Positions 1,473 to 51,142 of a stretch of 61,485 bases of DNA are shown here, piece by piece; the first letter of the stretch is position 1; each line of letters begins with the position of its first letter. The DNA comes from a virus, in IMG/VR virus record IMGVR_UViG_3300037067_026753; one strand, 5' to 3'. A model generated the notes under the pieces. The model was not told where the DNA came from and made no database searches. It saw only the letters and a program-made list of their open reading frames with translations. Both the position numbers and the translations under genes were made by a program.

Positions 1473-1979
1473 TTAATTATCAATAAGGAAGGAAAATTTA
1501 CGTTTATCACGTCTTGTCTGTCTAAATTTCAATTCCTCTTGGATTTTATCCACAGCTTTGTTGTTCAGAACCTTCAAATCGTTAATTTCATTCTTTTTCA
1601 ATTCTGCTTGTGTATATAAACCACCTGCTCTACTTTTAATATTAAGCCATTGTTTGTTTAATGAAATCAATAGGTCTTGTAATCTCGAATCTTCATCAGA
1701 TATCTTTATTTCAACTCTATTTTTCCAAATACCCGTGTCTAAGAAAATTTGCAAACGTTGAGTAGCTTTCGAAGCAGTTCTTTTTAAAGCTTGTTTTTGT
1801 TGTTGTGTTTCTTTTTCGGCACTAATTTTAGCATTTTCTGCGTCAAATTCAATAGAATCATATGGTTCATAAGTGTTAGCCCAGTCTTCCCAAGAACCCT
1901 GTGAAAGTAAAGAAGAAATTTGTTTTATTTGTTTCCAAAAATCTTTTGTCATTGTATACTTTACATTAAACTGAGACAT
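1473..1979 (-). CDS. Hypothetical protein (168 aa)
   Basis: ORF from the supplied track. Confidence 0.5.
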   Translation of the reverse strand: MSQFNVKYTMTKDFWKQIKQISSLLSQGSWEDWANTYEPYDSIEFDAENAKISAEKETQQQKQALKRTASKATQRLQIFLDTGIWKNRVEIKISDEDSRLQDLLISLNKQWLNIKSRAGGLYTQAELKKNEINDLKVLNNKAVDKIQEELKFRQTRRDKRKFSFLIDN

Positions 1980-2509
1980 TTCTTTATTCTTTCATCTAAA
2001 TCTTTTTCTTTAATCTCTACTACATTTTGCTGTCCAAACATTTTAAAAATGCCCAATAAATCGGTATTAGATTTCTGTCTCCATTGTGCATCAAAATGTA
2101 AGTCTGGTCTAACACCGTCATCCTTAGGCTCAACACTTGGATCTAGATGAAATATTATATCATATCTACTATTAAGATTCAACAATCTCTTGAATAAATA
2201 ATTATATGCTATCAAATCTTTAGGATTCTCGAATAGGACAAGATCCATTGCAAACAAAAAACCAAGATATATAGGACTATCAGTTATCATAAAATCCGCC
2301 TGTTGTACGACACTGTCTTCCCATTCTATCTGTTTGCTAGTCACAATGATTTGTTCCCAAATGGTATCTATGGACCTATGCTTTGAAATATAACTACGGG
2401 CATACTCGCTGATTAGCTCGACATGTTTATCAATACATGCACTTGCTAAAGCTCTTGCTAATGTAGTTTTACCCGAACCAGGTATGCCCGAGATGCCAAT
2501 TCGCTTCAT
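1961..2509 (-). CDS. P-loop kinase, NadR-type nicotinamide riboside kinase-like
   Basis: Walker A GISGIPGSGKTTLA. The motifs SEYARSY, FMITDSP and DDGVRPD match my recollection of the E. coli NadR ribosylnicotinamide kinase domain. Confidence 0.55.
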   Translation of the reverse strand: MKRIGISGIPGSGKTTLARALASACIDKHVELISEYARSYISKHRSIDTIWEQIIVTSKQIEWEDSVVQQADFMITDSPIYLGFLFAMDLVLFENPKDLIAYNYLFKRLLNLNSRYDIIFHLDPSVEPKDDGVRPDLHFDAQWRQKSNTDLLGIFKMFGQQNVVEIKEKDLDERIKKCLSLM

Positions 2510-20217: not shown

Positions 20218-20997
20218 TCAGTTGAAGAAGGAGTTATTCGCTCCGCCGACGGTTGTCTGACTGGTTCTTATGACGGATTTGCTCACCAGATCGACAGTCC
20301 TGCGTATTTCGCTCTCGGTAGCGTCAACTGTCATTTTGTTGATGAACCCGACGGAATCAGCAATTGCACCAAGATCATCATTGGGATCCTGCTTATAACC
20401 GATATAAACAGGGTAGAATCCCTCTTTTTTCAGTGATGCATCGACGACTGTTTTGCAATCGTCAGCTGAATGCTTGCGCGAATCATTATCGTCACCATCT
20501 GAAAAAACTGCAATGATGATTTTTGACCGTACACCACTACTCTTCAGATCCTTGGCGTAAGCTTGCGCTCCGGTCAATGCATCCATAAGAGCATCATACA
20601 GCGCCGTTGAACCACCTTTTGCAGCATACTGTTTTTCGATGGGACCGATATCTGTGGATTTTTTGAACCCATGGAGGATGGTTGCCCGTGTCGAAAAAAC
20701 AACCGTACTCACGAGAATCGAGCCACCCTGTTTTGAGCCTTTGAAGGAATTGATGAATTTGTCGTAGCATTCCCTGACGGTATTCTCATGCATGTTCATC
20801 GACAATGAACCGTCAAGGAGCACCTTAACCAGGGTGACATCGTCCGTTTCGATATCATCTACCGAAGCGCCCAAGCACCCGGTGAGATTTGTTCCGTTCA
20901 AACTGTTGATCATCAATGCTGATGCGGCCGGATCCATTGTCTGATCGTTCTGAAACAAGGATTGAATATCACCAACAGTTGGTTGACTTCCTGCCAT
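20218..20997 (-). CDS. von Willebrand factor A domain protein (TerY-like)
   Basis: MIDAS motif LLDGSLSM (DxSxS) and a downstream AVFSDGDDND. The region has elevated GC. The tracked ORF starts at 21108; an internal Met with a GGAAGG RBS at 20997 is the likelier start. Confidence 0.55.
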   Translation of the reverse strand: MAGSQPTVGDIQSLFQNDQTMDPAASALMINSLNGTNLTGCLGASVDDIETDDVTLVKVLLDGSLSMNMHENTVRECYDKFINSFKGSKQGGSILVSTVVFSTRATILHGFKKSTDIGPIEKQYAAKGGSTALYDALMDALTGAQAYAKDLKSSGVRSKIIIAVFSDGDDNDSRKHSADDCKTVVDASLKKEGFYPVYIGYKQDPNDDLGAIADSVGFINKMTVDATESEIRRTVDLVSKSVIRTSQTTVGGANNSFFN

Positions 20998-21016
20998 ATT
21001 AAACCGCCTTCCTATT

Positions 21017-21958
21017 TTAAAAGATTTTGTCTGTGCTATTGACGATGTGTACGCCTTCTTTGATGAAGCCGTCGAACTGTGCTTCAGCAATAGCATCGAA
21101 ATCGACATCCGGATTCTTGACCGAGCTCATGCAGTTTCTCAGGATCCATATCTTCTCGAGAATTGCAGTCTGTCCCTTGAAGAAAGCGATCAGCTGCCTG
21201 AGGGATTCAAGCACGCAGTGCGACTTTGCTTCGCCGACGACTATGATTTTGTCGTATTTCCCGAGTACATTGCAGAATCCCGTATTGATACCGGATGCCC
21301 TGGGGTTTTTGGGTACCAGGACTTCGGGCCGGAAAATACCATACATTTCGGTTTCCGGTACGTCGCCTTTGATTTGGAAACTGATTTGCGACCGGCGAAT
21401 CAATGCGTGGTAGTAAAGGATTTCATAGAGCGCCGGTACGAGAGCATGTCCCGGTGTACCGAGCATGGTGTGTTCCGGCCAGATAATCAGGGGCTGTTTG
21501 GTTTGTGCTTCGAGTGTTTTGATGTAATCAAGCGACCATACAGGGTCGATGACCGGTTTGAATTTGCCTTTTTCCACGTCTGCGGCCGTGATGAACGTGA
21601 ACGGCGCCGGATGCTGACCTTTTTCATCGAGCCACCAGTTCCCGTAGAAAATTTGGAAAACCAGGTGGGTATCGAGAGTTGGATAGATTGTTGTGATTCT
21701 ATCCATGTGCTCGAGAATGAAATCGATAATGTTGAACATATCCATTTCAGCATTATCAACGTACAGTTGACCGGTAGGCCGTGGGCAACAGAAATCCACC
21801 TGACAGTCAATTGCGAGTAATGCCGTTCTCTGTCCAGGTTTATCCATTACCGATGGTATTGGAGTAAGGCGAGCGGCCTCTTCCTTTACCCTGGTGATGT
21901 CTGGGACATATAGAGCCCCAATCTTCGACTGATCAAAGAAACTTGGTTTGGACGCCAT
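21017..21958 (-). CDS. Isochorismatase-family cysteine hydrolase (nicotinamidase PncA-like)
   Basis: ALLAIDCQVDF (compare ALLVIDMQNDF) and IVVGEAKSHCV (catalytic Cys region). Confidence 0.55.
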   Translation of the reverse strand: MASKPSFFDQSKIGALYVPDITRVKEEAARLTPIPSVMDKPGQRTALLAIDCQVDFCCPRPTGQLYVDNAEMDMFNIIDFILEHMDRITTIYPTLDTHLVFQIFYGNWWLDEKGQHPAPFTFITAADVEKGKFKPVIDPVWSLDYIKTLEAQTKQPLIIWPEHTMLGTPGHALVPALYEILYYHALIRRSQISFQIKGDVPETEMYGIFRPEVLVPKNPRASGINTGFCNVLGKYDKIIVVGEAKSHCVLESLRQLIAFFKGQTAILEKIWILRNCMSSVKNPDVDFDAIAEAQFDGFIKEGVHIVNSTDKIF

Positions 21959-21971
21959 ATCTGAACTCCTT

Positions 21972-23846
21972 CTATTTAATAAGTCTTAAAAATTTGGCAT
22001 CATGTTCCGAAACAGCTAATATTCCATCTTTATATATTGACAAAGAACAACCTGAGTCAACAAATTGTTCAGTTTCTTTCTTGAGAGTAAATTGTCCTTT
22101 TCGCTCGATTACTATCCCGGCATCCGTAGGATGTACTATAGAAGAACCGAGTAGAATTTTCCCTTCGATAGTTTTCAAGAATGGAGAACTTATTGATTCT
22201 TCTTTTTTAGAATCGAGAATTTTTCCTTCATCATCAATCAAATAATAATAGGAATAAGTTCGACCTTTGTCCAAAGTTTTAAATAAAAACAAGACAGTAC
22301 CTCTTGAAATTTCAGCACAATACTCAATAAGTTGTCCTTGAATCGAAGGAATTGCAGTTTCGTATCTACCTTTACCTGAAAAAACTACAAAATAGTATTG
22401 TTGGAATATCCTGTAAAACAAGATACCAAGACCGGATGGACCTACTGCAAACCATGTTTGATTTTGAAGCGTTTGCATTACGACAGTATCAGTCAGATTG
22501 CCTTGTACGACTTCTGTCGCAATCAAAGCTTGATCCGTCAAACGGTATAATTTTGAACCGCTACAACCAATCATAGTCTTATGGTCAAATTGTAATGTTG
22601 TTGTCTTTGCTACAGGTTTGAGTTGATTACCAGCAAGTTCGACGACCATGAGGTAGTTTGTTCCCACGACAAGGTAATTTTTGAAGAAATCAAAAACCGT
22701 ATCACGTTTATGGCCATCCCAAATTTTGTGGGTGTATCGAGCTTTTTCTGTTATTTCATGCACTTTGGTTTGACTACCAGCATATTCAACGATAATTACT
22801 CTATTGTCCTCAAGAACTTTAGAATAGAGTATTGAACCCTCGGTTTTAAATATTGTTTCAGACAAACATTTACCTGCATCTACGGTATGAGTAACCACTA
22901 TATGGGTTATGAGTGGTGCTGGTTGAACTGTTGTAACAAAGCACACAGGACATTTCGCTCTTCCTTTATAATACCAACCGTTACATTGATTGCATTTTTC
23001 AAATTGGTTTTTATGTGCTGTTAAAAGAGCAGCCGGTATATCAACCCTTTCGCCAAGCCTGAATATTTTGTCAAAGATGTCAAGCAATTCTGGGCTTATA
23101 GTTTCAGGTTTATTCGAAATCCTTGGATATGTTACTGAAGAATCCATGATATAGATTTTTCTTCTTGCTCTTTCGACAATAGAATCGTAGGTTGCATGAG
23201 TGCCGCCATAAGGGTGTGCTAAAAGTAGACATTTGAAAAGCATGACGGCAAAACTATACCAATCTGTTTCTTTTGTGAAATACGGTTTATCAGCAAGATT
23301 GAGCCCGTAAAGATTTGGATCAAGATAAGTATCTGTTCCTACAGCACATGGCCAATCACCAACCTGGAACGAATCGACATCTATGTAAATAGAACCAAAT
23401 TTCGGGGTAAACATTACATTCAAATCGTTATTGTCTCCGATAAATAATCTTGGTGCAACATGTATTGCATCCATTGTCAGTTTTGAGTCTACAAAAAAAT
23501 CAATAATATCATTAGGAGTGATTTGTTCTGTTTTCCTGAATTGTTTATTGGAAAGATTGATTACTTCTTTACCTTTTGCTAAAGGCATGGAAAATCCCAC
23601 GATGTCATTACCTCTTGCGTCCAAGATGACATCAATGGGATAAGCTATATTTGTTGGGAGTTTAAGACTTGAACCCACTTTTATAAATGCTAAAAGTTTC
23701 TCAGCCCTCGTTTTTGATGGTTGATGATAAACTTTTAGAGCTACTCCTTTATGAAGGACTACAGTAGCTTCACCACCGACACCTAATGCACTGGTATCAT
23801 CTACTAAGATCTTGTCATTCTTGTAGATTACTGTTTTGGTCGCCAT
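21972..23846 (-). CDS. Ser/Thr protein kinase-like protein with central zinc ribbon and C-terminal beta-rich domain
   Basis: Gly-loop LGVGGEATVV, VALKVY (VAIK-like) and DVDSFQVGDW (DFG-like). CNQCNGW...CPVCF zinc ribbon. Confidence 0.5.
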   Translation of the reverse strand: MATKTVIYKNDKILVDDTSALGVGGEATVVLHKGVALKVYHQPSKTRAEKLLAFIKVGSSLKLPTNIAYPIDVILDARGNDIVGFSMPLAKGKEVINLSNKQFRKTEQITPNDIIDFFVDSKLTMDAIHVAPRLFIGDNNDLNVMFTPKFGSIYIDVDSFQVGDWPCAVGTDTYLDPNLYGLNLADKPYFTKETDWYSFAVMLFKCLLLAHPYGGTHATYDSIVERARRKIYIMDSSVTYPRISNKPETISPELLDIFDKIFRLGERVDIPAALLTAHKNQFEKCNQCNGWYYKGRAKCPVCFVTTVQPAPLITHIVVTHTVDAGKCLSETIFKTEGSILYSKVLEDNRVIIVEYAGSQTKVHEITEKARYTHKIWDGHKRDTVFDFFKNYLVVGTNYLMVVELAGNQLKPVAKTTTLQFDHKTMIGCSGSKLYRLTDQALIATEVVQGNLTDTVVMQTLQNQTWFAVGPSGLGILFYRIFQQYYFVVFSGKGRYETAIPSIQGQLIEYCAEISRGTVLFLFKTLDKGRTYSYYYLIDDEGKILDSKKEESISSPFLKTIEGKILLGSSIVHPTDAGIVIERKGQFTLKKETEQFVDSGCSLSIYKDGILAVSEHDAKFLRLIK

Positions 23847-24579
23847 TTTGTTTCTCGATTACTATGCAAGTTGCGTCATCCCCAAAGAGTTTTTGATCAT
23901 GCCACAAATTGAACTTTCTTTGAAGTTGACGTTTGTGCGTTCCATATAATTGCGAATCTAATCCATTATCAATAAGAGGCTGAATTCCATCTGTCCCTAT
24001 GATAATGGAATCAATTTCGTTTTGATCAAAAACTTTTATTGTAAAAAAACTAAGTTCAGTTGGCCGTTTTTCAAGGGCTTCTTTGGGTATGGCCTTGTAT
24101 GCAATATATTCAGGTGTTCCTGCTTGATGAATTTCGTGTATTTGTTTATTTAAAATGATGATTCCATCACCACAATTTCCGACAATTACTTTGTCGTTTA
24201 CCAAGATAGTAAACAGACATGTACTCAAAAGCATTTCCTTGACAAAGGAAATGCGTTCTGGTACCCAAACGTCATCAAAGAACAGAACCCCGAGAAGACG
24301 TTTTACAAAAAGATCTAATTCATATTCGATTAAATCTTTTAAACGTTCGGAGTCAATGACTTTGAATTTAGCATCTTGTAAAGTTCGCACAAAATTTACA
24401 ATATATGTGCCTATGAGAGTAGCACCCACTTCCGAATATTTACTTTCCCCACACCCATCGCACACTGTCGCTACTAAAAGCTCTGGTGTTTGATGGGAAT
24501 GAGCAAAGTCCTGCCTATTCTTAAATGAGAGCTGATGGTCTCGACCGACAATAGAAGCAGTGTTAATAAACCAATTCAA
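23815..24579 (-). CDS. PP2C-family Ser/Thr phosphatase
   Basis: VCDGCGES resembles the DGxGG metal site; IIIGTDGIQ resembles the C-terminal SDG motif. Confidence 0.55.
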   Translation of the reverse strand: MNWFINTASIVGRDHQLSFKNRQDFAHSHQTPELLVATVCDGCGESKYSEVGATLIGTYIVNFVRTLQDAKFKVIDSERLKDLIEYELDLFVKRLLGVLFFDDVWVPERISFVKEMLLSTCLFTILVNDKVIVGNCGDGIIILNKQIHEIHQAGTPEYIAYKAIPKEALEKRPTELSFFTIKVFDQNEIDSIIIGTDGIQPLIDNGLDSQLYGTHKRQLQRKFNLWHDQKLFGDDATCIVIEKQNGDQNSNLQE

Positions 24580-28292: not shown

Positions 28293-29975
28293 TTAGAATT
28301 TTGAAAGTTTCCATGACTGAGCAATTGGTATTCTTCGTCCAAAACCAAATGCTTTCCTATGTAATTTAATACCTAAAGGAGCCTGCCTGCGTTTGAATTC
28401 GGCGTTCTTGATTAGCTGACAGACTCTTTTTACTGCTTCAGGATGTTGATCAGCAATAATTTTGTATTTTTCGTATTCTGCAGGATCTAACCAGTCGCCT
28501 TCAATAAAGAGCTCGAGCAAAGCATCAAGAACAGGATATGGTGGCAAACTGTCGACGTCCTTTTGTCCGGGAGCCAATTCAGCGGAAGGCGCCTTATCAA
28601 TGATCGCTTGTGATATTGCTCCCGGGTATAATGTGTTATAATAAGCAGCCAGTTCATAAACTTTCATTTTGGGTAGATCGGAAATTGGAGAGAGACCGCC
28701 GCACATATCCCCATACATAGTACAATATCCGACAGACAATTCGCTCTTATTTCCTGTCGAAAGGACTAAGTATCCAAAACGATTCGAGTAAGTCATAAGG
28801 ATCATGCCACGAATACGAGCTTGCAAATTTTCTTCAGCAATTCCCGTTTTTTCAGGTGTTCCAAAGCATTTGTTAAATTCTTTGAGAATTGTTTCATAGA
28901 TTCCCTTAATGGGAAGAGTATGAAAATCTATGCCAAGATTTTTGCAAAGAGCCTCTGAATCTTCATAACTTCCGGTCGATGAATATTCCGAGGGCATTGT
29001 ACAACCCATGACTCTTTTAGAGCCAAGAGCTTCTTTTGCAACAGCAGAAACAACAGCGCTGTCTATACCACCAGATTCTCCTATAGCCACTCCTTTGAAA
29101 CCACACTTTGTAACATAAGAACGAACACCGCATACTATTTGCTTGAAATAAAATTCGGCATTCGAAGCATACGGTATATGTTCAATACCACCAGGTGACA
29201 TGCCATGAGTGTGATAAGCAAGCATTAAAGAATCAATTTCAGATCGTTCCTGAACAAAATCCCCCGACTTGAGGATTATAGCACCACGTTTGTTTGTGAC
29301 AAAGCTGTTACCGTCAAAAACAATGTCATCATTACCACCAACCTGATTGACGTAAACAATGGGCATTGCATATTGCTTGCTGATCCGCTTTATCATTTCG
29401 ACTCTTTCTTGATGTTTTCCGACAACAGAAGGAGAGCCGTTGATTGAGATAATGAATTCGACATTTGCATTGAAAAGATCTTCAACAGGATTTATTGTAT
29501 AAATTGAATTGTTGTACCACAGATCCTCACAGATAACAATTCCAATACGTATGCCGCGAAATTGAAAAATGCCCGGTTTTTCTCCCGGTTGAAAATAACG
29601 AGACTCATCGAAAATATCATAGGTAGGTAGTAACCTTTTCCTGTAGTTGTATATGACTTCACCTTTATAGCAAACTGCAGCCGAATTATAGAGCTTTTTC
29701 CCATGGCCTGTATTTTTTTCTACATAGCCGATTATAATTGGAGAATTGATTTCTTTTGTTTGTTCGAGAAACCATTTTAATGCTTCGTCTTGATCTGCAA
29801 GAAAAGCTGAATAATCGACTAAATCAAGAAGAGGATAGCCAGGGATAGTGAGTTCTGGGAAAACATACATGAAAACGCCATTGTCAGTTTTTTGCTTTAT
29901 AAAGTCGATAACTTTTTGAGCATTCCCCATAAAATCACCAACAATCGTGTCGATCTGACATAAGACAATATTCAT
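28293..29975 (-). CDS. nadE: Glutamine-dependent NAD+ synthetase (NadE, CN-hydrolase plus PP-loop synthetase)
   Basis: The N-terminal nitrilase-like domain has the catalytic Glu in VFPELTIPGY and a Cys in VICEDLW. The C-terminal SGGIDSAVV is a PP-loop ATP pyrophosphatase motif. Confidence 0.85.
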   Translation of the reverse strand: MNIVLCQIDTIVGDFMGNAQKVIDFIKQKTDNGVFMYVFPELTIPGYPLLDLVDYSAFLADQDEALKWFLEQTKEINSPIIIGYVEKNTGHGKKLYNSAAVCYKGEVIYNYRKRLLPTYDIFDESRYFQPGEKPGIFQFRGIRIGIVICEDLWYNNSIYTINPVEDLFNANVEFIISINGSPSVVGKHQERVEMIKRISKQYAMPIVYVNQVGGNDDIVFDGNSFVTNKRGAIILKSGDFVQERSEIDSLMLAYHTHGMSPGGIEHIPYASNAEFYFKQIVCGVRSYVTKCGFKGVAIGESGGIDSAVVSAVAKEALGSKRVMGCTMPSEYSSTGSYEDSEALCKNLGIDFHTLPIKGIYETILKEFNKCFGTPEKTGIAEENLQARIRGMILMTYSNRFGYLVLSTGNKSELSVGYCTMYGDMCGGLSPISDLPKMKVYELAAYYNTLYPGAISQAIIDKAPSAELAPGQKDVDSLPPYPVLDALLELFIEGDWLDPAEYEKYKIIADQHPEAVKRVCQLIKNAEFKRRQAPLGIKLHRKAFGFGRRIPIAQSWKLSKF

Positions 29976-29983: not shown

Positions 29984-30292
29984 TTATTCTATGACTTCAA
30001 ACAAACCGTAGAGAAAGTGCTTGTGATCTTTATATCGGAATGCAACAAATCCATCATATCGAACTACTCTTGCGCAGGAATCATAGACTTGAACAACAGA
30101 ACCATCGCAAGCATACCGAAGTATCTGATATGTTCTTGGTTTTTCTTCAGTTTTACTACAACTTATAATCAAAGTGACTATAAAGAGCAAATTACAACTT
30201 ATAATCAAGGTGACTATAAAGAATAATTTAACGGATGATTTGCATTTTGTTTGCTGTAACAAAATCTCCCCCAATAGAAAATTGATAGACAT
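29984..30292 (-). CDS. Hypothetical hydrophobic small protein with an internal duplication
   Basis: LFFIVTLIISC is duplicated by a 36-bp tandem repeat. It overlaps the 3' end of the upstream gene by 65 nt. Confidence 0.3.
   Translation of the reverse strand: MSINFLLGEILLQQTKCKSSVKLFFIVTLIISCNLLFIVTLIISCSKTEEKPRTYQILRYACDGSVVQVYDSCARVVRYDGFVAFRYKDHKHFLYGLFEVIE
30158..30229. repeat. Two tandem copies of a 36-bp direct repeat
   Basis: acaacttataatcaaagtgactataaagagcaaatt followed by acaacttataatcaaggtgactataaagaataattt. Confidence 0.8.
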
Positions 30293-33014
30293 AAGAACCA
30301 GAAGTTAGGTTTATGTTTGAACTATAAGTTCCGGCATTGGTCGTATGATTAAATTTATATACTGTGCTTCCATTCATTGAAAAAATTATCAGTTTGACAT
30401 TGTTTTGTTTTGCAACCGAGTATTTGACCATTCCATTAGAAATAGAAAAAGAATTAGTTAATTTTTGAGTTGCTGTTATTATAGATGTCGGAATTTCCGC
30501 AAGGACGATAACATGATAAACAACCTGGGATTTGCCATCAGAAATTATGAAAGTCAACGTGTCCGAAATTGCTTTTTTCAAAGACACCTTATAAGTTGAA
30601 TCTTCGATTTCTACGACAAGGCTAGACACATTGAAGGTGGAGGTATCAATGGAATATATTAACTCATCTCCATCAGGGTCTATGACCTTCGCGTTAATTG
30701 CTATAGGCGTGTTCAACTTTTTAAAAGTTATTGTAGTGTCATTTGGCACAACAGGTATTCTATTCTTATCTGAGACCGTTAGAGTAACAGTCCTTTCTAC
30801 AGCAAGTTCGCCATCAGAAACAACAACCTTAAAAGTCTGTGTCCCAGCTGACGTATAATTGGTAGTAATTTTATAAGTATTTGCCTGTGCCAGTAATGTA
30901 GTTCCGGAATACCATTTTACTATAGGTGTTGTTCCTTCAGGGTCGCTTGCTGTAACTGAAAGAGTTATGCTATCGGTTTCATTTATAGACGTGTCATTGG
31001 TAATTGCAACAATTACTGGTGCTCCGTTTATATGTTTGACTATTAGATTATAAGTTTGCTTTGTAAAAGCGCCATACGTATCTGTTGCAGTTATTGAAAT
31101 AACAAGATTACTCCCAGTATCCTGCAACGTGGGCAGCCAAGAGATTAACCCGGAAGATGTCATTGTCATTGTTGCAGGATGAACAATTAATGTATAGGTA
31201 ATAGGTTGATCGTCAACAGCTTGAACTTGATAACTATATTGTTGTCCTTCATTTACTGTAGTAATAGGAGTTGACGTAAATACTGGAGGGACATTGGTTG
31301 TTGAAACTGCAATGTTGTAAGTCAGCGTGTCAAATGTTGGTGTTACATTCTGTTTTTGAATTACATCATAGTGATTCGAACTGTCGGTCAAGATTATTTT
31401 GACTGTCGTGTCAACTGATGTATGAAGTGGTTCGCCTGAGATTGCAAATTGGTTTTTTGATATTCTTGTCATTGACAACCAAGAAGGAAGTTTCGAATAC
31501 GAAAGATATGATGAATCATCATCAGGATCTGAAGTTATAATTGCCTGTGTATATTGTGTTCCTTCGGAGGCTGTAGTAAGTACCGATTTTGACATTGAAA
31601 TATTTCTTGAATAGATTTTCAAATTCCAGGTTATTGTATCATAAATAGGAATAGAGAAATTATCTCTTACCTGAAACTTGATTGTGTATGTTCCTGTCGA
31701 TAAACTTGTGTCTATTGAAAAAATCGTATCGACGAGATTTATTCCTATCGGATTTTGAATTATGGAATAGGTTAGTTGCGAATTTGAAGAATGATCAAAA
31801 GCATGCAACGTATCGACGTAATTTATTTGTTTTGCTTCATTAAGCAACCCAAGAGAATCTGTAAAATGAGTGTTGTAGAAAAACGGAGCATAGTTTAAAT
31901 CGTATTTTACTAAACCATTTGTCCCTGCATCTGCAACCTGATATGTAATTTGTTGTGTTGCATAATCTACTATCAAGTCTCTTATTGTGCCCGATATAGA
32001 TCTTGGGAGATAACAAAGAAAATCGCCTTTTGTAGAAAGGATTTTTGTATTGTCGGTTATGAACCCGGATTGAAAGGATGTTGTCAGAGACGCTATTGGG
32101 CAATAGTCAACATCGACACCCGTACTTGAAATTTTACGTGAATCGTAGAAAAATGTCGTGTCGACTGGATTGACCGCAAAAATCTTATGTACGTAACCTG
32201 AAGTTTTTACAGTAATACGTATTCCATTATAATATGAAAGTTGTCCTGAAGGATTTGTCAACCAGATACCATTGTTATCAACAAAATATCCAAGTACGTT
32301 TGGAATGATTGTGGTAGTATTGCAATTATCCGTTAATTCATAAAGTGTATCATTTGAAACAAAACGGATTGTATTGTCTTTGCAAGTAAGAGTAAGCAAC
32401 GTAGCATCGGATGATGTCGTTATCGTCGAATTCAATCTCCAGATTCCAAGATGATTTTTATAGATTTTTATTGTTCTCGATTTGGGTATTGCAATTGCAG
32501 TATAAATAGAATCAAGTTTGAAAATTTGAATATATGTATTGATTGTATCTCTCCGCGAGTCGGCAGCTCCGACCATAAACAAACCATCAGAAGCAGACCC
32601 TCGTATATCAGGATGTGCTTTCCATTCTGTGTTGAGATATCTTTTAACTGAATCAATGTCAACTTGAAAATTCGGATCGCCTGCCTTTGCTATACCGAAA
32701 AAAGGGCTTTGTTGGTAGACACCAATTCCTAAAGTGTCGATTGTGTCGGCAGGTGTACTAACTGTTATTCTACCTTTCTTTGCATAAAGACCCCAGTATG
32801 TGTCATCGATTTCAGCAGCCAAATACCAACTCTTACTCAGATTTGAAAACTCTGTTATGGGAGAAGACGTGTAAGTTGCATTCTGTTGTTTCGGCATTGC
32901 CGCCATAACTTCCAGCATTAAAACAACGATCATGATGATAGATTTGTGAAGCATATAGAACCTCCTGCTTTGGGTGTAGTGTTTATATCGTGAGATATAT
33001 TTTAACACAGCCAA
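30228..33014 (-). CDS. Large secreted Ig/cadherin-like repeat protein with a T9SS C-terminal sorting domain
   Basis: N-terminal signal peptide (MLHKSIIMIVVLMLEVMAA), Thr/Ser-rich beta repeats, and a C-terminal segment of about 80 aa (VKYSVAKQNNVKLIIFSMNGSTVYKF...SGSYVYQFSIGGDFVTANKMQIIR). The C-terminal segment matches the Por-secretion (T9SS) CTD pattern. Confidence 0.65.
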   Translation of the reverse strand: MAVLKYISRYKHYTQSRRFYMLHKSIIMIVVLMLEVMAAMPKQQNATYTSSPITEFSNLSKSWYLAAEIDDTYWGLYAKKGRITVSTPADTIDTLGIGVYQQSPFFGIAKAGDPNFQVDIDSVKRYLNTEWKAHPDIRGSASDGLFMVGAADSRRDTINTYIQIFKLDSIYTAIAIPKSRTIKIYKNHLGIWRLNSTITTSSDATLLTLTCKDNTIRFVSNDTLYELTDNCNTTTIIPNVLGYFVDNNGIWLTNPSGQLSYYNGIRITVKTSGYVHKIFAVNPVDTTFFYDSRKISSTGVDVDYCPIASLTTSFQSGFITDNTKILSTKGDFLCYLPRSISGTIRDLIVDYATQQITYQVADAGTNGLVKYDLNYAPFFYNTHFTDSLGLLNEAKQINYVDTLHAFDHSSNSQLTYSIIQNPIGINLVDTIFSIDTSLSTGTYTIKFQVRDNFSIPIYDTITWNLKIYSRNISMSKSVLTTASEGTQYTQAIITSDPDDDSSYLSYSKLPSWLSMTRISKNQFAISGEPLHTSVDTTVKIILTDSSNHYDVIQKQNVTPTFDTLTYNIAVSTTNVPPVFTSTPITTVNEGQQYSYQVQAVDDQPITYTLIVHPATMTMTSSGLISWLPTLQDTGSNLVISITATDTYGAFTKQTYNLIVKHINGAPVIVAITNDTSINETDSITLSVTASDPEGTTPIVKWYSGTTLLAQANTYKITTNYTSAGTQTFKVVVSDGELAVERTVTLTVSDKNRIPVVPNDTTITFKKLNTPIAINAKVIDPDGDELIYSIDTSTFNVSSLVVEIEDSTYKVSLKKAISDTLTFIISDGKSQVVYHVIVLAEIPTSIITATQKLTNSFSISNGMVKYSVAKQNNVKLIIFSMNGSTVYKFNHTTNAGTYSSNINLTSGSYVYQFSIGGDFVTANKMQIIR

Positions 33015-37444: not shown

Positions 37445-37663
37445 CTATCCCTTAGCTTCTAGAGCTTCTATAAACCGACTGATTTCATTTAATTCTCTAG
37501 CATTAATTTGTACATATCTTATAGGAGAAAATAAAGTAGATCCACCTAAACGCTGAATAACTCCTATACATTTGCTTCTCTTATAGACATCATGCAACCA
37601 ATAAGTGCGTGCTTTTTTCTTGAATGTTAAAGTTTTTGTTTTATGTACAATTACTTCATTCAT
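37445..37663 (-). CDS. Hypothetical small protein (72 aa)
   Basis: ORF from the supplied track. Confidence 0.4.
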   Translation of the reverse strand: MNEVIVHKTKTLTFKKKARTYWLHDVYKRSKCIGVIQRLGGSTLFSPIRYVQINARELNEISRFIEALEAKG

Positions 37664-38541
37664 AAATTTTTAAACCATGTACGGCTAAATGATGTGTTGT
37701 CTTTTTCCGACCAACCGTTTGTATATTTAAGCAAGTCAAGATGATTCAATGTTGAACTTATTTCATCAGCTCTATGAAGAATATAGGATTCTTTTGTCTT
37801 GCAAACTATAGGACTACCACAGTTTAATTCTCCATGGTGACTAAGAATAAGGTGATAAAGAAGCATGATTTTTGTCTGATCTACATCATTGGGTGCAATT
37901 TTTGATACAAACAAAGCTGAAATAGAAAGATGTCCCAACAATGCTTCCCAATTTGTTTTTGAAATTTTACCTTCATCATCAAGATCATAAGCTTTTAATT
38001 TTCCAATATCATGCAACAATCCTGCTGTTATCAACAATTCTCTATCGACGTCGCTAAAATATTGTCCAATCAATAAACTTATATCGACAACTTCAATGCT
38101 ATGCTGGACTAAACCATGTATGTAATTGTGATGATTGCCTTGAGCGGCTGGGTATTCAAAATATAACTCTTTGACATCTTCATTAAAACAATTATCAAGT
38201 ACTTTTTTATAATCTACATCTGTGACACTTGCAATAAGCTCGTAAAATCTGTCTATATACTTTTGAACATCAAATTTTTTATCTATCTGTGTATCTAGCA
38301 TATGTTTTGACAAATAAATAATATCAAGACAAAAATATTTCCTTCTTTTTCTAACACGTCCCTTACAAATAATTTTTTCACCAACACTATACGTTTTAGA
38401 AAACAGATCTATATTGTCTTTCAAAAGCCCAATTATTTTAGTTGTTCCATCATTAAGCTCTATCTCGACAACATGATCTCTAAACGTAATTCTTTCAATT
38501 GTGAAAGAACCTGTAATTATTTTGCCCGATTCAAATTCCAT
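37660..38541 (-). CDS. HD-domain phosphohydrolase with an N-terminal OB fold (YhaM-like 3'-5' exonuclease architecture)
   Basis: HHNYIHGLVQHSIEV......LLHDIGK HD motif, with a beta-rich domain N-terminal to it. Confidence 0.55.
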   Translation of the reverse strand: MEFESGKIITGSFTIERITFRDHVVEIELNDGTTKIIGLLKDNIDLFSKTYSVGEKIICKGRVRKRRKYFCLDIIYLSKHMLDTQIDKKFDVQKYIDRFYELIASVTDVDYKKVLDNCFNEDVKELYFEYPAAQGNHHNYIHGLVQHSIEVVDISLLIGQYFSDVDRELLITAGLLHDIGKLKAYDLDDEGKISKTNWEALLGHLSISALFVSKIAPNDVDQTKIMLLYHLILSHHGELNCGSPIVCKTKESYILHRADEISSTLNHLDLLKYTNGWSEKDNTSFSRTWFKNL

Positions 38542-39330: not shown

Positions 39331-39535
39331 GATATATTATGATTGAGTCACAATAAATATTTACTATTTTTGTCATTATCATTTTAAATTCAACTTCACG
39401 AACAACATACCTAACAGTCCTTGCTATCTTATTATTCAAAAGTTCTATTTTTGTTCCCTTAGAAGGTATAGGACAGTCACTAGACGTTGACGAAACCTGT
39501 TCGTCTAATCCTGGGATATCAAAAAGTACATTCAT
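39314..39535 (-). CDS. Hypothetical small protein (73 aa)
   Basis: ORF from the supplied track. Confidence 0.35.
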   Translation of the reverse strand: MNVLFDIPGLDEQVSSTSSDCPIPSKGTKIELLNNKIARTVRYVVREVEFKMIMTKIVNIYCDSIIIYLEECD

Positions 39536-41163
39536 CTTTTCTTCAACACACTTGGTTTTGATAAAATTTCATTGAACAGAGCATCAATATCGTCTTCTCT
39601 ATCACTAGCGTAATTTGCTCTTATCCCATCCTTTTTCTCGTCATCCCATCCAACCCACTGTACAAGATAATCGAGATCTTCTTGCATAGTTTTCTGCACA
39701 GAAATTTTTGATTGAAGAGCCTTAAGTATATGATCCTGTCGTAATGGAACATCTTTGTGAGTCGTATTTCTTTCATGCCACATTTCGACAAGTGAAGCTT
39801 TAACAACCTGATCGATTTCACGTCCTGTAAGCAACGGGCTATTCAAACCAAGATGTTGAACATCAATATTCAATTTTTTAGGATCACGTCCAGTCTTCCT
39901 GAGATGAATATCAAAAATCGAAGCTCTATCAGATGCTGAGGGCAGCGGCACAAAGAACTTATCATCAAACCTTGAAATAAGTTCTGGTGGCAAATATTGA
40001 ATACTGTTGCATGTTGCAACTATAAAAATTGGTGCAGTACAATCTTGGTACCATGTTAAAAATGAACCAATGACTCTGGCTGTTGTTCCTGCATCACTGA
40101 ATGTCGAACTTTGAGAACCAGCAAATTGTTTTTCAATTTCATCAATCAGAACTGCACATGGTGCTACACTCTCAATTATTTTGAGAGCTTTCATGAGCCG
40201 CATTTCGCTTTCACCAACTCTTGATGAAAATATTTTGCTTGGCGTAAAAGCAATCAAAGGTAGCCCCCAATAATTACCAATTGCCTTTGCAAGCAATGAT
40301 TTCCCGCAACCTGTAACGCCGAGCATTAAAACACCCTTTGCTGGTGGAATCTTTAACCGAACAGCTTCCTCTGACCATACTCCTTTTCGTTTTTCAAACC
40401 AATGCTTGATTCTACCAAGACCACCGATCTCGTCAAATGTAACATTGGTTTCTAAGACATCCAACAGATCAGTCTTTCTCAAGATAGTCTTTTTGTAAGC
40501 ATTGATTTCTTCAATGTCAAGTTTTTTCTTTTTCTTGAGAGAAGCCATTACGATCTGCTCTACTTCAAAAAGAGTCAAACCACGAAATCCCATCTTCACG
40601 GTTTCATCGATTTCAGTAGAAAGGCGCTGATTCCCGGGGGAAACTGAATTGAATTCTCCCAACAAGTATTGCACTTTTTTAGTGATTGCTTCATCATCAG
40701 GAAGATCATAAAAAACAACTTCGAAATAACGTTGCAACTTTGTGGGAATTGAAAGCGTCGATGAAACAATAATCAGAGACTTGAGATGAGTATAATCATG
40801 GTATATATTGAGCACCATGTCTTTGAGTTTGCGAATATTTTGAAAATTTGCAGGTTGCGTTTCATACAAATGATGATCAATATCCAAAAGAATATAGATC
40901 AAACGCTTGTCTGTTGACTGATTTTGTTGAATTGCTGTCAGAGCTGCATGAATAGGCATTGTTTTAGAGTCAATAATATCTTCTTTCTTGTCAGCTTCTT
41001 TTGCATATTCATTGTAGGGAACAATACCTGTCGTTGTTCTATAAACAAAAATTTGAGAATTGTTTTTTGTCTGTTCATAAATATCTTGAATCAGACAATC
41101 TTCTTCCTCAGTAACGACGTGTATTAGAGGGCGCAGAATATCTAGATTAGATTTTAAATCCAT
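39532..41163 (-). CDS. AAA+ ATPase
   Basis: Walker A GVTGCGKSLLAKAIG, Walker B AVLIDEIEK, and an arginine-finger region. Confidence 0.75.
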   Translation of the reverse strand: MDLKSNLDILRPLIHVVTEEEDCLIQDIYEQTKNNSQIFVYRTTTGIVPYNEYAKEADKKEDIIDSKTMPIHAALTAIQQNQSTDKRLIYILLDIDHHLYETQPANFQNIRKLKDMVLNIYHDYTHLKSLIIVSSTLSIPTKLQRYFEVVFYDLPDDEAITKKVQYLLGEFNSVSPGNQRLSTEIDETVKMGFRGLTLFEVEQIVMASLKKKKKLDIEEINAYKKTILRKTDLLDVLETNVTFDEIGGLGRIKHWFEKRKGVWSEEAVRLKIPPAKGVLMLGVTGCGKSLLAKAIGNYWGLPLIAFTPSKIFSSRVGESEMRLMKALKIIESVAPCAVLIDEIEKQFAGSQSSTFSDAGTTARVIGSFLTWYQDCTAPIFIVATCNSIQYLPPELISRFDDKFFVPLPSASDRASIFDIHLRKTGRDPKKLNIDVQHLGLNSPLLTGREIDQVVKASLVEMWHERNTTHKDVPLRQDHILKALQSKISVQKTMQEDLDYLVQWVGWDDEKKDGIRANYASDREDDIDALFNEILSKPSVLKKR

Positions 41164-44848: not shown

Positions 44849-44868
44849 ATTTTTACTCGTTAAAAAAC

Positions 44869-44940
44869 TGGGGTAGAAGGATTTGCACCTCCGACACCCG
44901 GCTCCAAGGGCCAGCGTTCTTCTACTGAACTATACCCCAA
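44869..44940 (-). tRNA. tRNA-Gln (anticodon TTG) with a non-canonical anticodon loop CCUUGGA
   Basis: Cloverleaf folds by hand, with a U1-A72 pair and G73 as expected for Gln. Anticodon stem CTGGC/GCCGG. Position 33 is C. Confidence 0.6.
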
Positions 44941-44953
44941 TAAATTTCAAACT

Positions 44954-45026
44954 AGCCACAAAGAGACTTGAACTCTTAACCTACAGTTTAGGAAACTGTG
45001 ACTCTATCCAATTGAGCTATGTGGCT
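44954..45026 (-). tRNA. tRNA-Arg (anticodon CCT)
   Basis: Acceptor AGCCACA/TGTGGCT, anticodon loop TTCCTAA, T-loop TTCAAGT. Confidence 0.8.
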
Positions 45027-45031
45027 AAAAA

Positions 45032-45108
45032 TGGTCGGAACGAGCAGAGTTGAACTGCTGACCCCCTGCACCCCATGCAGGTGCGCTACCAGGCTGCGCC
45101 ACGTTCCG
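45032..45108 (-). tRNA. tRNA-Pro (anticodon GGG), CCA encoded
   Basis: Acceptor CGGAACG/CGTTCCG, anticodon loop ATGGGGT (as I remember E. coli proL), T-loop TTCAACT, 3'-terminal CCA. Confidence 0.8.
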
Positions 45109-45126
45109 TTGTTCAAAGAACTTAAA

Positions 45127-45201
45127 TCGGAGTGAGTGGATTTGAACCACCGGCCTTGTGATCCCGGATCACACGTTCTAACCAGGCTGAACTACACTCC
45201 G
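45127..45201 (-). tRNA. tRNA-Pro (anticodon CGG) with C33
   Basis: Acceptor CGGAGTG/CACTCCG, anticodon stem TGTGA/TCACA, loop TCCGGGA (C at position 33). Confidence 0.65.
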
Positions 45202-46182: not shown

Positions 46183-47052
46183 TTAGACTCCTTTAGCAAG
46201 ATAATCCCAAACTTTTTGTTCGTTTATAGCAACCAGAACATAATCACCATTTTCATCAAGTCTCGATCCCCATTCACCTTTTTCACTGTAAGGTTTTGCT
46301 CTGACCCATGTCCCAATTTCTGGATGCAAATGACATACCGCAGCAGTAGGATCATGAAATTTTTTCCCATCACTACCAAGTTTAAATCTCCACGTCATAC
46401 CTTCGCGGAATAATTCAGCAGCTCGATCTTTTGGGGGAACACTTGTTATGTATTTATGAGTATCAAGATTATACATCATATAATGACAAACATTTTTACC
46501 AACAAAATGTCTTTCTTTGATATCCATTTTTAAGAAGTTAAAAGCACCCTTTTTGTCACCATTTAAATTGAAAGTTGGGACTGTTTGTTTTCCTTTGAAT
46601 TTATCAAGCATTTTCACAGTAATACCATGTGTCATATAACCAATAAAACCACCTTGCATAGTTGCACAATTTAATTGTACGGGCAAATTATAATGGCCTA
46701 AATTTTGAAGAGGTCCACATCCGAAAAAATCAACATCATCATCAACAAGAACACGTCTGATAACTTCATTTGCAAGAATTGCGTTTGAAGAATAATATGG
46801 AAATTTATATTGATCAAGCATTGCTTTATGAATGTTTGTTGGATGTTCTTTTCTTCTTCCAAGTAAGGGGACACCTATGAGAACATCTTTCTTTCCCAGA
46901 ATTTGAAGTAAAAAATCCACAATAGCGATTTGCATCTCATCACCCGGGCTAATAAGAATACCTTTAATATTCACCCCAGCTGAAAATAAATAACATAAAG
47001 CAAAAAAATCATCTGGGTCATGACCTATATCTGTTTCGACTAATAGATTCAT
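46183..47052 (-). CDS. Nucleoside hydrolase (IU-NH family)
   Basis: N-terminal ETDIGHDPDDFFAL matches the DxDxxxDD Ca2+/ribose-binding motif. Confidence 0.6.
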   Translation of the reverse strand: MNLLVETDIGHDPDDFFALCYLFSAGVNIKGILISPGDEMQIAIVDFLLQILGKKDVLIGVPLLGRRKEHPTNIHKAMLDQYKFPYYSSNAILANEVIRRVLVDDDVDFFGCGPLQNLGHYNLPVQLNCATMQGGFIGYMTHGITVKMLDKFKGKQTVPTFNLNGDKKGAFNFLKMDIKERHFVGKNVCHYMMYNLDTHKYITSVPPKDRAAELFREGMTWRFKLGSDGKKFHDPTAAVCHLHPEIGTWVRAKPYSEKGEWGSRLDENGDYVLVAINEQKVWDYLAKGV

Positions 47053-49871: not shown

Positions 49872-50696
49872 TCAATCCACGAATTTTACATTTGCCCTTG
49901 CACGTGCTTTGGATTCAGTATTGACAAGTACTTTATGCCATACGCTTCCAAGATTCACAGTAGCATGTTCTTCATGCGAAATTTTGCCCTTGGCATACAC
50001 ATTGGGATCAGCCATCATAGAACGGTAACGCTTTGCACTATCAGGTTGCTCTTTTAAGAGCTTTTGATAATCTTTCACTTCAATAACGTTACTCCCAAGA
50101 ACATAAACTTGTCTTCCACCTACTCTGTACAAAAATTCAGCATAGTGAAAGTGAGAACCTCCACCTCTCATCGGTTCGTTCTTCCAGACTTTTGTCAAGT
50201 TCCCTTTGGGCGGCTCAAAATTCGGTTGAGGAACAAACATGAATTCGCCTTGACGGTGAATTTTCTTTCCCGACTTCAAAAGACGGTGTCTCTTATGCGC
50301 ATTCTTTTTGTTGACACCCTCTTTCGATTCAATGTCAATAAGTTCTTTGGGTTTTAAAGCTTGTTTGGCACCAATTACCGTAGTAACTCTTGAAGATTCA
50401 GGGATAGCACAAGTGAACCAGTGACGTTCATCATGTCCACAAAGAAATTTCGACTTGATTTCGCTTGTCTTATCGCCTTTTCTGTTGATAACAGGTACTT
50501 TTGTCATCAAAAGCAAATGTCTGTCAGCTTTTTGAGCATCAAGAATCAACATTTCTATTTCTTTTGTGACTTGAAGCTCAAAATACTCGCCTTCACTGTC
50601 TCTTCTGACATCAATAGAAAAACCATCTCTACGTGGCTCAATGACTTTTACTCGAGCCCCGATTGCTTCGAATTTCTTTTCGATTGTTGTTGTCAT
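49872..50696 (-). CDS. Hypothetical protein (274 aa)
   Basis: ORF from the supplied track. Confidence 0.5.
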   Translation of the reverse strand: MTTTIEKKFEAIGARVKVIEPRRDGFSIDVRRDSEGEYFELQVTKEIEMLILDAQKADRHLLLMTKVPVINRKGDKTSEIKSKFLCGHDERHWFTCAIPESSRVTTVIGAKQALKPKELIDIESKEGVNKKNAHKRHRLLKSGKKIHRQGEFMFVPQPNFEPPKGNLTKVWKNEPMRGGGSHFHYAEFLYRVGGRQVYVLGSNVIEVKDYQKLLKEQPDSAKRYRSMMADPNVYAKGKISHEEHATVNLGSVWHKVLVNTESKARARANVKFVD

Positions 50697-51142
50697 ATAA
50701 CCTCTAAATAAAGCGTGCTTCCAATAAATTTTTCAAGAACTTTACCATGATCAAAAGCAAGATCAGGTAAATTATTTATATCAAAAAATTCAAGTTTCCT
50801 TGCATCATCTTTAGCTTTAGGCTCACCAGTGCATCTATGTACATAATAAACATGATCTATCACATGTCCTCTTGGATCTCTTTTGGGATCAGAATTGACC
50901 ATGAATAATTCAAGATGTCTGGGCTCCACAACTAAATTTGTTTCTTCATAAAACTCCCTTGCTCCTGCAACCTCCAAACTTTCTTGATCACAGTTCAAAA
51001 ATCCACCCGGTAATGCCCACATACCAACAAAGGGTTCATGATCTCTCTGAATCAACAAAATTTTATTTGTTTTGTTTGTAGTCATGTAAATCAAACTAGC
51101 AGTCGAAGCTGCATTTTTAAAATCATGAATATCAGTTGGCAT
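50693..51142 (-). CDS. Nudix hydrolase
   Basis: Nudix box GGFLNCDQESLEVAGAREFYEETNLVV (Gx5Ex7REUxEExGU). Confidence 0.8.
   Translation of the reverse strand: MPTDIHDFKNAASTASLIYMTTNKTNKILLIQRDHEPFVGMWALPGGFLNCDQESLEVAGAREFYEETNLVVEPRHLELFMVNSDPKRDPRGHVIDHVYYVHRCTGEPKAKDDARKLEFFDINNLPDLAFDHGKVLEKFIGSTLYLEVI

Follow-up and report, generated by a model that had tools for sequence, protein, structure and literature searches.

A probable partial nicotinamide-recycling gene set with a TerY-P-type cassette in an uncultured megaphage

The DNA analysed here is the entire 61,485-bp stretch (34.5% G+C) of the IMG/VR virus record IMGVR_UViG_3300037067_026753 (hereafter the window), which encodes a glutamine-dependent NAD+ synthetase (NadE) and, in a separate operon, a PncA-like hydrolase accompanied by a PP2C-type phosphatase, a Ser/Thr-kinase-like protein and a vWA-domain protein (the cassette). 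With moderate confidence, we read these genes as a partial and dispersed Preiss-Handler module for nicotinamide recycling, which would stand under a TerY-P-type phospho-switch and keep NAD+ available in the infected cell. The initial annotation had combined five open reading frames (ORFs) into one NAD+ salvage and synthesis set, namely NadE, the PncA-like hydrolase, a Nudix hydrolase, a P-loop protein resembling the nicotinamide riboside kinase (RNK) of NadR, and a nucleoside hydrolase. All five were recovered where it had placed them, all on the minus strand, and their family assignments were borne out by profile searches, PDB matches and fold models, the P-loop and isochorismatase-family proteins not being unrelated enzymes. 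As a single gene set, the proposal survives for a part of its members: the NadE, PncA-like and Nudix genes are linked with that of nicotinate phosphoribosyltransferase (PncB) in other phages, whereas the RNK-like kinase (18 loci) and the nucleoside hydrolase (22 loci) are unlinked. NadE, the PncA-like protein and the Nudix hydrolase thus make up a credible functional group, whose fourth gene (PncB) was seen only in relatives.

NadE and the PncA-like gene cassette

The products on which this reading is built are:

28293..29975, minus strand: NadE, glutamine-dependent NAD+ synthetase, 560 aa, with an N-terminal glutaminase (nitrilase-type) and a C-terminal NAD synthetase domain
21017..21958, minus strand: divergent predicted nicotinamidase of 313 aa (PncA-like cysteine hydrolase), extended at the N-terminus and carrying an insertion when compared with canonical PncA (~200 aa)
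23815..24579, minus strand: PP2C-type protein phosphatase, 254 aa, first cassette gene (Pfam PP2C_2, 55.3 bits)
21972..23846, minus strand: Ser/Thr-kinase-like protein, 624 aa, in which a kinase domain and a zinc ribbon are followed by an uncharacterised C-terminal domain (~300 aa)
20218..20997, minus strand: vWA-domain protein, 259 aa (start according to a public metagenome-assembled genome (MAG); the longest ORF reaches 21108; Pfam VWA, 33.3 bits)
50693..51142, minus strand: Nudix hydrolase of the ADP-ribose pyrophosphatase / NadM-Nudix / NrtR type, 149 aa (Pfam NUDIX, 64.3 bits)

Both domains of NadE were recognised by Pfam (CN_hydrolase: 96.5 bits, residues 5-239; NAD_synthase: 235 bits, residues 278-532), the protein scored 612.6 bits against the NCBIfam equivalog NF010588 (cut-off 479), and two solved glutamine-dependent NAD+ synthetases could be aligned with it (PDB 5kha with residues 3-556 at 1.7e-116, and 4f4h likewise over the full length). 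E41 (FPEL), K113 (KRLLP) and C149 (ICED), which we take from established family knowledge to be the glutaminase triad, are present together with SGGIDS at residues 301-306, presumably the PP-loop ATP-binding motif (SGGxDS) of the family, and both triad and motif are invariant in the phage alignment (n=3 sequences). Judged by its sequence, the protein is unambiguously a bona fide glutamine-dependent NAD+ synthetase, predicted to catalyse the amidation of nicotinate adenine dinucleotide (NaAD) to NAD+.

The 313-aa PncA-like protein had no match in NCBIfam or PHROG, and single-sequence searches of the PDB returned nothing useful for it (or for the 289-aa nucleoside hydrolase). It has 673 homologues, many of which carry the JGI name nicotinamidase; in 26 of them a triad (D51, K197 and C248) and a metal site (D96, H98 and H163) are invariant, the residues of which line up with those of yeast Pnc1 and Mycobacterium tuberculosis PncA, and the motifs 'WPxH' and 'QxDF...GxLxV' are among the conserved nicotinamidase-specific positions of the family. 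The only PDB matches of a profile made from the 26 homologues were yeast Pnc1, M. tuberculosis PncA, Pyrococcus horikoshii PncA and one cysteine hydrolase. Furthermore, the best ten PDB fold matches of the AlphaFold2 (AF2) model (predicted local distance difference test (pLDDT) 92.9) were all nicotinamidases (at the top 2wta: 5.8e-12, template modelling (TM) score to target 0.75), with biuret hydrolases and other isochorismatase-like or cysteine hydrolases first appearing at rank 11. On the strength of profile, fold and active-site evidence we accept the protein as a divergent nicotinamidase, with the activity as a prediction from sequence and model. A reading of its weak isochorismatase match as a spurious Rossmann-like signal from the neighbouring vWA protein was ruled out by the invariant residues, the profile and the fold matches. 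The canonical nicotinamidases (yeast Pnc1 2h0r, M. tuberculosis PncA 3pl1 and Acinetobacter baumannii PncA 2wta) have the same fold, the same Asp-Lys-Cys triad and the same Asp-His-His metal site; the phage protein departs from them in its low identity (17-20%), in an N-terminal extension of ~40 residues and an insertion of ~50 residues, in its length (313 aa vs the 180-220 aa typical of single-domain enzymes) and in scoring below the gathering threshold of PF00857.

The initial annotation had missed the surroundings of the PncA-like gene: it is the third gene of a tight four-gene operon with the order PP2C-kinase-PncA-vWA (window 20218-24579, minus strand), the vWA gene following immediately downstream of it. 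The metal-binding Asp residues of the phosphatase are conserved (D41, D138, D197, D234 and D235). The kinase stays below the cut-off of Pfam Pkinase (24.6 bits), its family keeps the glycine loop (G24-G25), K38, D138, N143 and D156, and a zinc ribbon follows (C285-x2-C288 ... C299-x2-C302). The vWA protein has a full metal ion-dependent adhesion site (MIDAS) motif, which 22 lineages retain (D99-x-S101-x-S103 in the numbering of the 296-aa ORF). The lineages were derived from 79 IMG/VR viral loci with PncA-like relatives, which collapsed into 28 lineages at 90% identity and whose neighbouring ORFs were clustered; beside the PncA-like gene, the vWA gene was found in 22/28 of them, the PP2C gene in 23/28 and the kinase gene (~600 aa) in 23/28. 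MAG contigs that are assigned to Chloroflexota, Polyangiaceae and Spirochaetales show the same four-gene order (PP2C-kinase-PncA-vWA). Among the bacterial cassette loci, a Nudix gene like that of the window lies directly upstream in two, and NadE lies three genes downstream in one; at many bacterial loci the hydrolase homologue stands alone in unrelated contexts.

The TerY-P triad (Anantharaman et al. 2012, summarised in PMC10542128) combines a TerY-like vWA protein with a PP2C phosphatase and with a Ser/Thr kinase that bears a C-terminal zinc ribbon; such triads are modules attached to restriction and defence systems, and related triads are anti-phage systems in their own right (PMC10542128). 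By sequence, the vWA, PP2C and kinase genes of the cassette have the architecture of a TerY-P triad within one operon, with catalytic and MIDAS residues conserved, the match being one of architecture. The shared traits are a vWA protein with an intact MIDAS, the metal-binding Asp residues of the PP2C, and a kinase whose catalytic residues are followed by a CxxC...CxxC zinc ribbon. What sets the cassette apart is the nicotinamidase-like gene between kinase and vWA, the additional C-terminal domain (~300 aa) of the kinase, and the company it keeps: it is phage-encoded and linked to NAD+ synthesis genes, whereas the TerY-P triad is linked to tellurite-resistance or restriction genes.

Linkage to PncB and the Nudix hydrolase in other phages

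Within 10 kb of the PncA-like gene, NadE was found in 7/28 lineages, and a protein of ~400 aa, which Pfam (NAPRTase and NAPRTase_N) identifies as the nicotinate phosphoribosyltransferase PncB, likewise in 7/28. The genes are contiguous in L010 (PncB-NadE-PP2C-kinase-PncA-vWA) and in L071 (PncA-vWA-PP2C-kinase-PncB-NadE), two of the loci in which the island recurs; as found in other phages it comprises the PncA-like, vWA, PP2C, Ser/Thr kinase, PncB, NadE and Nudix genes. Since neither NadE nor PncB occurred in any of 40 control loci (0/40; RNK-like and nucleoside hydrolase loci of comparable large phages), the grouping of NadE with the PncA-like gene goes beyond chance (7/28 vs 0/40, Fisher p = 0.0012). 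The reciprocal scan started from 11 viral loci with full-length NadE, and within 10 kb of it found PncB in eight, the cassette kinase in six and the PncA-like gene in four; a canonical NadD was present in 1/11. In the complete megaphage genomes LR756500 and LR756511, the PncA-like, PncB and NadE genes are scattered over 30-60 kb (NadD was not detected in them), from which it follows that a dispersed layout like that of the window is normal for such phages. Across 50,697 phage records, NadE was found in 38, PncB in 13 and the PncA-like gene in 4, with a concentration in huge phages.

PncB, which the window lacks, is encoded on the contig of the window's closest relative (IMGVR_UViG_3300048599_000816). 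A Pfam scan of every window ORF of at least 60 aa, on which the gene content given here is based, detected no protein of the nicotinamide mononucleotide (NMN) adenylyltransferase (NMNAT), NadD, PncB, NAMPT, phosphoribosyl pyrophosphate (PRPP)-synthetase-like or PnuC type. PncB was also missing in tblastn searches of the window with phage PncB sequences, and NadD/NMNAT in phmmer searches of it with phage NadD and with a putative NadM-like N-terminal domain. The initial annotation had recognised no NMN adenylyltransferase and called the pathway incomplete, with which the Pfam and phmmer searches of the window agree. A regular expression for the NMNAT motif 'HxGH' matched neither the window nor any of the cassette loci; it was too strict (missing a protein with 'DLHEGH' in L071), so that the absence of NMNAT is weaker for the related loci than for the window, where Pfam and phmmer were used.

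The Nudix hydrolase, whose Pfam score is well clear of the cut-off, carries the motif of its family (E54-x7-R62-E63-x2-E66-E67). In NCBIfam it comes closest to NtrR and to the Nudix half of bifunctional NMNAT/Nudix enzymes, and among its PDB matches are 3gz8 and 3gz5 (MutT/nudix family proteins according to their depositions) along with the NadM-Nudix structures 2qjt and 2qjo. Homologues of it (35-40% identity, E 1e-18 to 1e-24) lie zero to two genes downstream of PncB-NadE in 3/11 of the phage NadE loci. In the window itself (48065-51142), the Nudix gene shares 4 bp (ATGA) with the beginning of a 274-aa ORF without detectable family, after which come a 257-aa protein of unknown function and an RNA ligase (PF09414); this stretch could be an operon for RNA repair or RNA-end processing, in which the Nudix enzyme could have another role, e.g. 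the removal of NAD caps.

Further genes were observed beside the island in other phages. Pfam-confirmed proteins with PARP catalytic and WGR domains flank the cassette/NadE island at L062:7072-8475, L013:1060-2268, L055:7-1161 and in L077 (family 54); PARP proteins consume NAD+ and release nicotinamide. Small macro-like proteins next to the island (L010:11870-12373 and L062:9455-9946) were recognised by eye only and had no Pfam match. The two kinds of neighbour suggest a wider NAD+/ADP-ribose island. Directly upstream of the cassette at L071:8479-9393 stands a 304-aa protein with a C-terminal Nudix domain and an N-terminal half that contains 'DLHEGH' and is not recognised by Pfam, which may be a divergent NMNAT-Nudix enzyme of the NadM type.

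The source phage and the two unlinked enzymes

The remaining features to which we refer are:

1961..2509, minus strand: stand-alone NadR-RNK-like P-loop kinase, 182 aa (Pfam AAA_28, 52.5 bits, cut-off 27)
46183..47052, minus strand: nucleoside N-ribohydrolase of the IU-NH fold (AF2 model), 289 aa
3320-6781: DNA polymerase III alpha (Pfam scan)
10331-10819: small P-loop kinase, 162 aa, matching PHROGs labelled thymidylate or guanylate kinase
30228-33014: 928-aa protein directly upstream of NadE, with an N-terminal hydrophobic segment and Big_9/PKD-like Ig repeats
37660-38541: HD-domain protein
39532-41163: AAA ATPase, 543 aa
L088:13612-15573 (same phage, ~13 kb left of the window): NAD+-dependent DNA ligase of the LigA type (DNA_ligase_aden, OB and BRCT)

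Nearly all genes of the window lie on the minus strand in a long co-directional array, and 17 tRNA genes are located between 44.8 and 61.3 kb (window 44867-61341), among them three tRNA-Pro, two tRNA-Gln, two tRNA-Met, three tRNA-Leu and three tRNA-Ser; endonuclease-like ORFs (DUF559/MTES_1575, HNH and GIY-YIG/NUMOD3) are interspersed with them. Besides the polymerase, the Pfam scan identified a dCMP deaminase, ThyX, UDG and a dUTPase_2-like protein, as well as SSB, ParB, an AAA ATPase, thioredoxin, Ogg, an RNA ligase and several methyltransferases, and found no virion genes in the window. We read this as the replication and nucleotide-metabolism block of an uncultured megaphage with a bacterial host. 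Its nearest relatives, viral contigs from IMG/VR, are 190-470 kb long, and the RNK-like and nucleoside hydrolase proteins are identical to ones on a contig of 424,144 bp. Identical DNA was found in several metagenome assemblies, near-identical DNA was not found among GenBank phages, and no exact IMG/VR match to the window end was found. A MAG labelled 'Candidatus Nanoarchaeia archaeon' (GCA_028717785.1; JAQUND010000010.1 and JAQUND010000020.1) also carries the window DNA, and its label is probably a binning artefact (a megaphage wrongly binned). A cellular origin was rejected in view of the bacterial-type Pol III alpha, SSB and LigA, the 17 tRNAs among homing-endonuclease-like genes, the single-strand gene orientation and the close relatives catalogued as viral (190-470 kb).

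Look-ups with end-proximal proteins extended the sequence by ~10 kb to the left (topoisomerase, SLT and LigA), while on the right every public assembly of the window DNA stops near the window's own end. The LigA-type ligase gene adjoins those of the topoisomerase, of the SLT lytic transglycosylase and of a second, ATP-type ligase-like protein.

The RNK-like kinase has a Walker A motif (G8-xx-G11-x-G13-K14-T15), and the best PDB match of its family profile is 9x6f residues 173-345 (the RNK domain of the phage NadR-like protein Bas30_86; 2e-6), followed by deoxyguanosine kinase 2jas (8.5e-4) and Lactococcus lactis NadR 6gye (0.002), while its best PHROG is labelled 'thymidylate kinase'. Its E62 and D117 appear to align with the pocket residues E230 and D275 of Bas30_86, provided that the PDB chain carries an offset of six residues, which makes the mapping a tentative one. 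The gene sits in an operon with DNA Pol III alpha and dCMP deaminase, and no conserved neighbour and no NAD gene was found within 10 kb of it at 18 viral loci; the protein is not fused to an NMNAT domain, and neither an NMNAT nor PnuC is encoded in the window. The default view of this AAA_28 protein as a deoxynucleoside monophosphate (dNMP) kinase is weakened by the presence of the second small kinase (10331-10819).

The nucleoside hydrolase scored 26.2 bits with Pfam IU_nuc_hydro PF01156 (below the cut-off of 34.2), and its family profile found no PDB sequence at E<=0.01. Its affiliation was settled by structure prediction, which alone gave clear matches: all 50 PDB fold matches listed for the AF2 model (pLDDT 95.1) are nucleoside hydrolases (RihA 3g5i at 1.5e-13). 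D8, D12, D14, D15, N162, H233 and D234 are invariant in 21 homologues, and the Asp cluster is one residue longer than the canonical DxDxxxDD. At 22 viral loci, no conserved neighbours and no NAD genes were found within 10 kb. Since neither gene is linked to NAD genes, the membership of the RNK-like kinase and the nucleoside hydrolase in a NAD+ pathway would be a matter of homology alone, and the two, genuine members of their families, most likely belong as separate genes to nucleoside or nucleotide metabolism.

Three further proteins of the window were noted. The 928-aa Ig-repeat protein is kept in the closest relative and is odd company for a replication block. The HD-domain protein has weak Cas3-HD-like PADLOC matches, and the 543-aa AAA ATPase matches the PADLOC IetA models (3.3e-17).

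Pathway, rival explanations and known systems

The enzyme families, their intact active sites and the conserved linkage of their genes are direct observations. The substrates, the order of the steps, the supply of NadD (and PncB) by the host, the regulation by the cassette and the benefit to the phage are predictions, for which the gene content is our guide. Nicotinamide, set free by NAD+-cleaving enzymes (host defence NADases, or ADP-ribosyltransferases of phage or host), would be deamidated to nicotinate by the PncA-like enzyme; PncB, which may be encoded elsewhere in the genome or supplied by the host, would convert nicotinate to nicotinate mononucleotide (NaMN); NadD would convert NaMN to NaAD; and the phage's glutamine-dependent NadE would finally yield NAD+. 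NadD is presumably the host's essential enzyme, because most of the related phage loci and genomes that were examined yielded none. The Nudix hydrolase probably turns ADP-ribose, the other product of NAD+ cleavage, into AMP and ribose-5-phosphate, and the vWA/PP2C/kinase phospho-switch would most likely control, localise or scaffold the nicotinamidase. The net effect would be NAD+ for phage consumers such as the LigA-type ligase, and NAD+ set against NAD+-depleting immunity. A role in general supply is plausible because the phage encodes this NAD+-dependent ligase just outside the window, and we consider general NAD+ supply and recovery from NADase immunity to be equally good reasons for the presence of these genes.

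Several observations weigh against this pathway. The window encodes no more than its first and its last step (neither PncB nor NadD is present in the 61 kb); a gap of 3.7 kb, occupied by eight small genes of no relation, separates NadE from the cassette; and three quarters of the lineages have the cassette without NadE or PncB within 10 kb, which implies that its function does not need them close by. The Nudix gene is 21 kb away, within the RNA ligase operon and among tRNA genes, so that an RNA-related role is possible. The PncA-like protein is ~100 residues longer than characterised nicotinamidases and its Pfam match is sub-threshold (20.9 bits with Isochorismatase PF00857 vs a cut-off of 27, confined to residues 194-280); its substrate could therefore differ. 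No PADLOC model, those of known defence or TerY-P-type systems included, matched the cassette proteins (at E<=0.01 there was nothing for vWA, PP2C and hydrolase, and for the kinase there were only 16-bit matches to PD-T4-6 and mad6), and the PADLOC scan of the NAD proteins of the window gave no meaningful matches. Moreover, no experiment ties any phage Preiss-Handler gene to counter-defence.

A first rival explanation is that the genes are a dedicated counter-defence, in which the PncA-like protein, (PncB,) NadE and the Nudix hydrolase would form a fourth reconstitution pathway that rebuilds NAD+ from the nicotinamide freed by TIR, SIR2 and SEFIR NADase effectors, the deamidated route avoiding the need for NMN or ADP-ribose pyrophosphate (ADPR-PP) and the triad switching on when depletion is sensed. 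We regard this as possible, though short of probable. Defences by NAD+ depletion are established, as are three reconstitution pathways of phages; the gene set would recycle exactly the NADase product nicotinamide and has a Nudix hydrolase of the ADP-ribose type; the island elsewhere also includes genes typical of NAD+/ADP-ribose conflict systems (PARP and macro-like); and the genes are rare in phages overall (NadE in 38/50,697 records) and concentrated in huge ones. On the other hand, an anti-defence role has no experimental or contextual support, four enzymes and two ATP-consuming steps are needed (of the phage loci examined, L225 is the only one not to lack at least one step), the identical cassette type is found in ordinary bacterial chromosomes, and the phage's own NAD+-consuming ligase suffices to explain genes for NAD+ supply.

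The cassette could also be an independent TerY-P-type signalling or exclusion system, the hydrolase acting e.g. on an amide-bearing signal or a modified nucleotide, with NadE as an unrelated auxiliary metabolic gene nearby. Such independence would fit the attachment of TerY-P triads to restriction and defence systems and the stand-alone anti-phage role of related triads (PMC10542128), the conservation of the cassette in 22-23/28 lineages (with NadE and PncB along in only ~25%), and the unusual length, the sub-cut-off Pfam score and the solitary bacterial occurrences of the hydrolase. We nevertheless hold it to be unlikely, as all nicotinamidase-specific residues are invariant (D-K-C triad and D-H-H metal site), nicotinamidases outrank other isochorismatase-like hydrolases in profile and fold searches, and the linkage to PncB and NadE is significantly enriched and seen from both directions. 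Quite improbable, in our estimation, is that there is no pathway at all, and that the five genes are unrelated parts of the nucleotide-metabolism repertoire of a megaphage whose co-presence in 61 kb reflects genome size. The genes are indeed spread over 50 kb among dCMP deaminase, ThyX, dUTPase-like, UDG, kinase and methyltransferase genes, the RNK-like and nucleoside hydrolase genes lack conserved neighbours, and the kinase (with thymidylate kinase as its best PHROG) belongs to a polymerase / dCMP deaminase operon. For the kinase and the nucleoside hydrolase this account is apt, but it fails for NadE, the PncA-like protein and the Nudix hydrolase, whose homologues repeatedly adjoin each other and PncB in distantly related phages.

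We thus retain the partial Preiss-Handler module under a TerY-P-type switch as our preferred reading. A more far-reaching conjecture, which we put forward tentatively and consider doubtful, is that phages and some bacteria possess a regulated nicotinamide-recycling island not recognised before (divergent nicotinamidase, TerY-P-type switch, PncB, NadE and ADP-ribose Nudix), which would represent a fourth NAD+ reconstitution pathway, running along the deamidated route and triggered by phosphorylation upon NAD+ cleavage, by which megaphages would escape NADase immunity with NadD as the only host contribution. NAD+ depletion is a major anti-phage strategy, and none of the three demonstrated phage pathways for rebuilding NAD+ uses the Preiss-Handler route or NadE. 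The recurrent phage island would rebuild NAD+ by the deamidated route, with its first enzyme tied to a kinase/phosphatase/vWA switch; this tie points to a regulated, not constitutive, NAD+ salvage, and for TerY-P-type triads, which are poorly understood, it offers a candidate enzymatic output. Should the NAD+-dependent ligase of the phage be all that the genes serve, they would amount to ordinary auxiliary metabolism in a megaphage.

The gene set had been suggested to be undescribed, which is contradicted by the 'NAD-jumbo phages' (Microbiome 2024, PMC11662467), in which metagenomic annotation identified pncA, pncB, nadD and nadE (pncB-nadD-nadE clusters included) and for whose Preiss-Handler genes a role in counter-defence has been raised as a speculation. 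Common to these phages and ours are the huge genome, NadE together with a nicotinamidase, PncB (here in close relatives), deamidated salvage and the speculation that NAD+ is sustained or restored during infection. The complete Preiss-Handler set consists of PncA, PncB, NadD and NadE, of which the window has the PncA-like protein and NadE only; unlike in the published phages, its genes are dispersed and not clustered, and its nicotinamidase is a divergent 313-aa protein inside a vWA/PP2C/kinase cassette, with an ADP-ribose-type Nudix hydrolase in the recurrent island (kinases have 0 occurrences in PMC11662467). In the searchable literature we found no report of a nicotinamidase embedded in a TerY-P-type cassette, and none of an island that joins such a cassette to PncB, NadE and an ADP-ribose-type Nudix hydrolase; the association with the cassette appears to be new, whereas Preiss-Handler genes in jumbo phages were already published.

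The experimentally established reconstitution pathways are NARP1 (Adps, which is PRPS-like, and Namat), NARP2 (Nampt and Nmnat) and NARP3 (PnuC and the bifunctional NadR-like Bas30_86). The difference in enzyme composition from the Adps/Namat and Nampt/Nmnat pairs, which the initial annotation had pointed out, is upheld: the defining enzymes of NARP1-3 are absent from the window (no Pribosyltran/PRPS, NAPRTase/NAMPT, CTP_transf_like/NMNAT or PnuC protein among the scanned ORFs), and the stand-alone kinase is most like the RNK domain of the NARP3 enzyme (9x6f), from which it differs in having neither an NMNAT domain nor a PnuC partner. The window, known from its genes alone, shares with NARP1-3 the proposed purpose of rebuilding NAD+ in the infected cell and, in part, nicotinamide as the starting material; its route would be deamidated (through nicotinate, NaMN and NaAD) and would end with NadE, an enzyme that NARP1-3 do not use.

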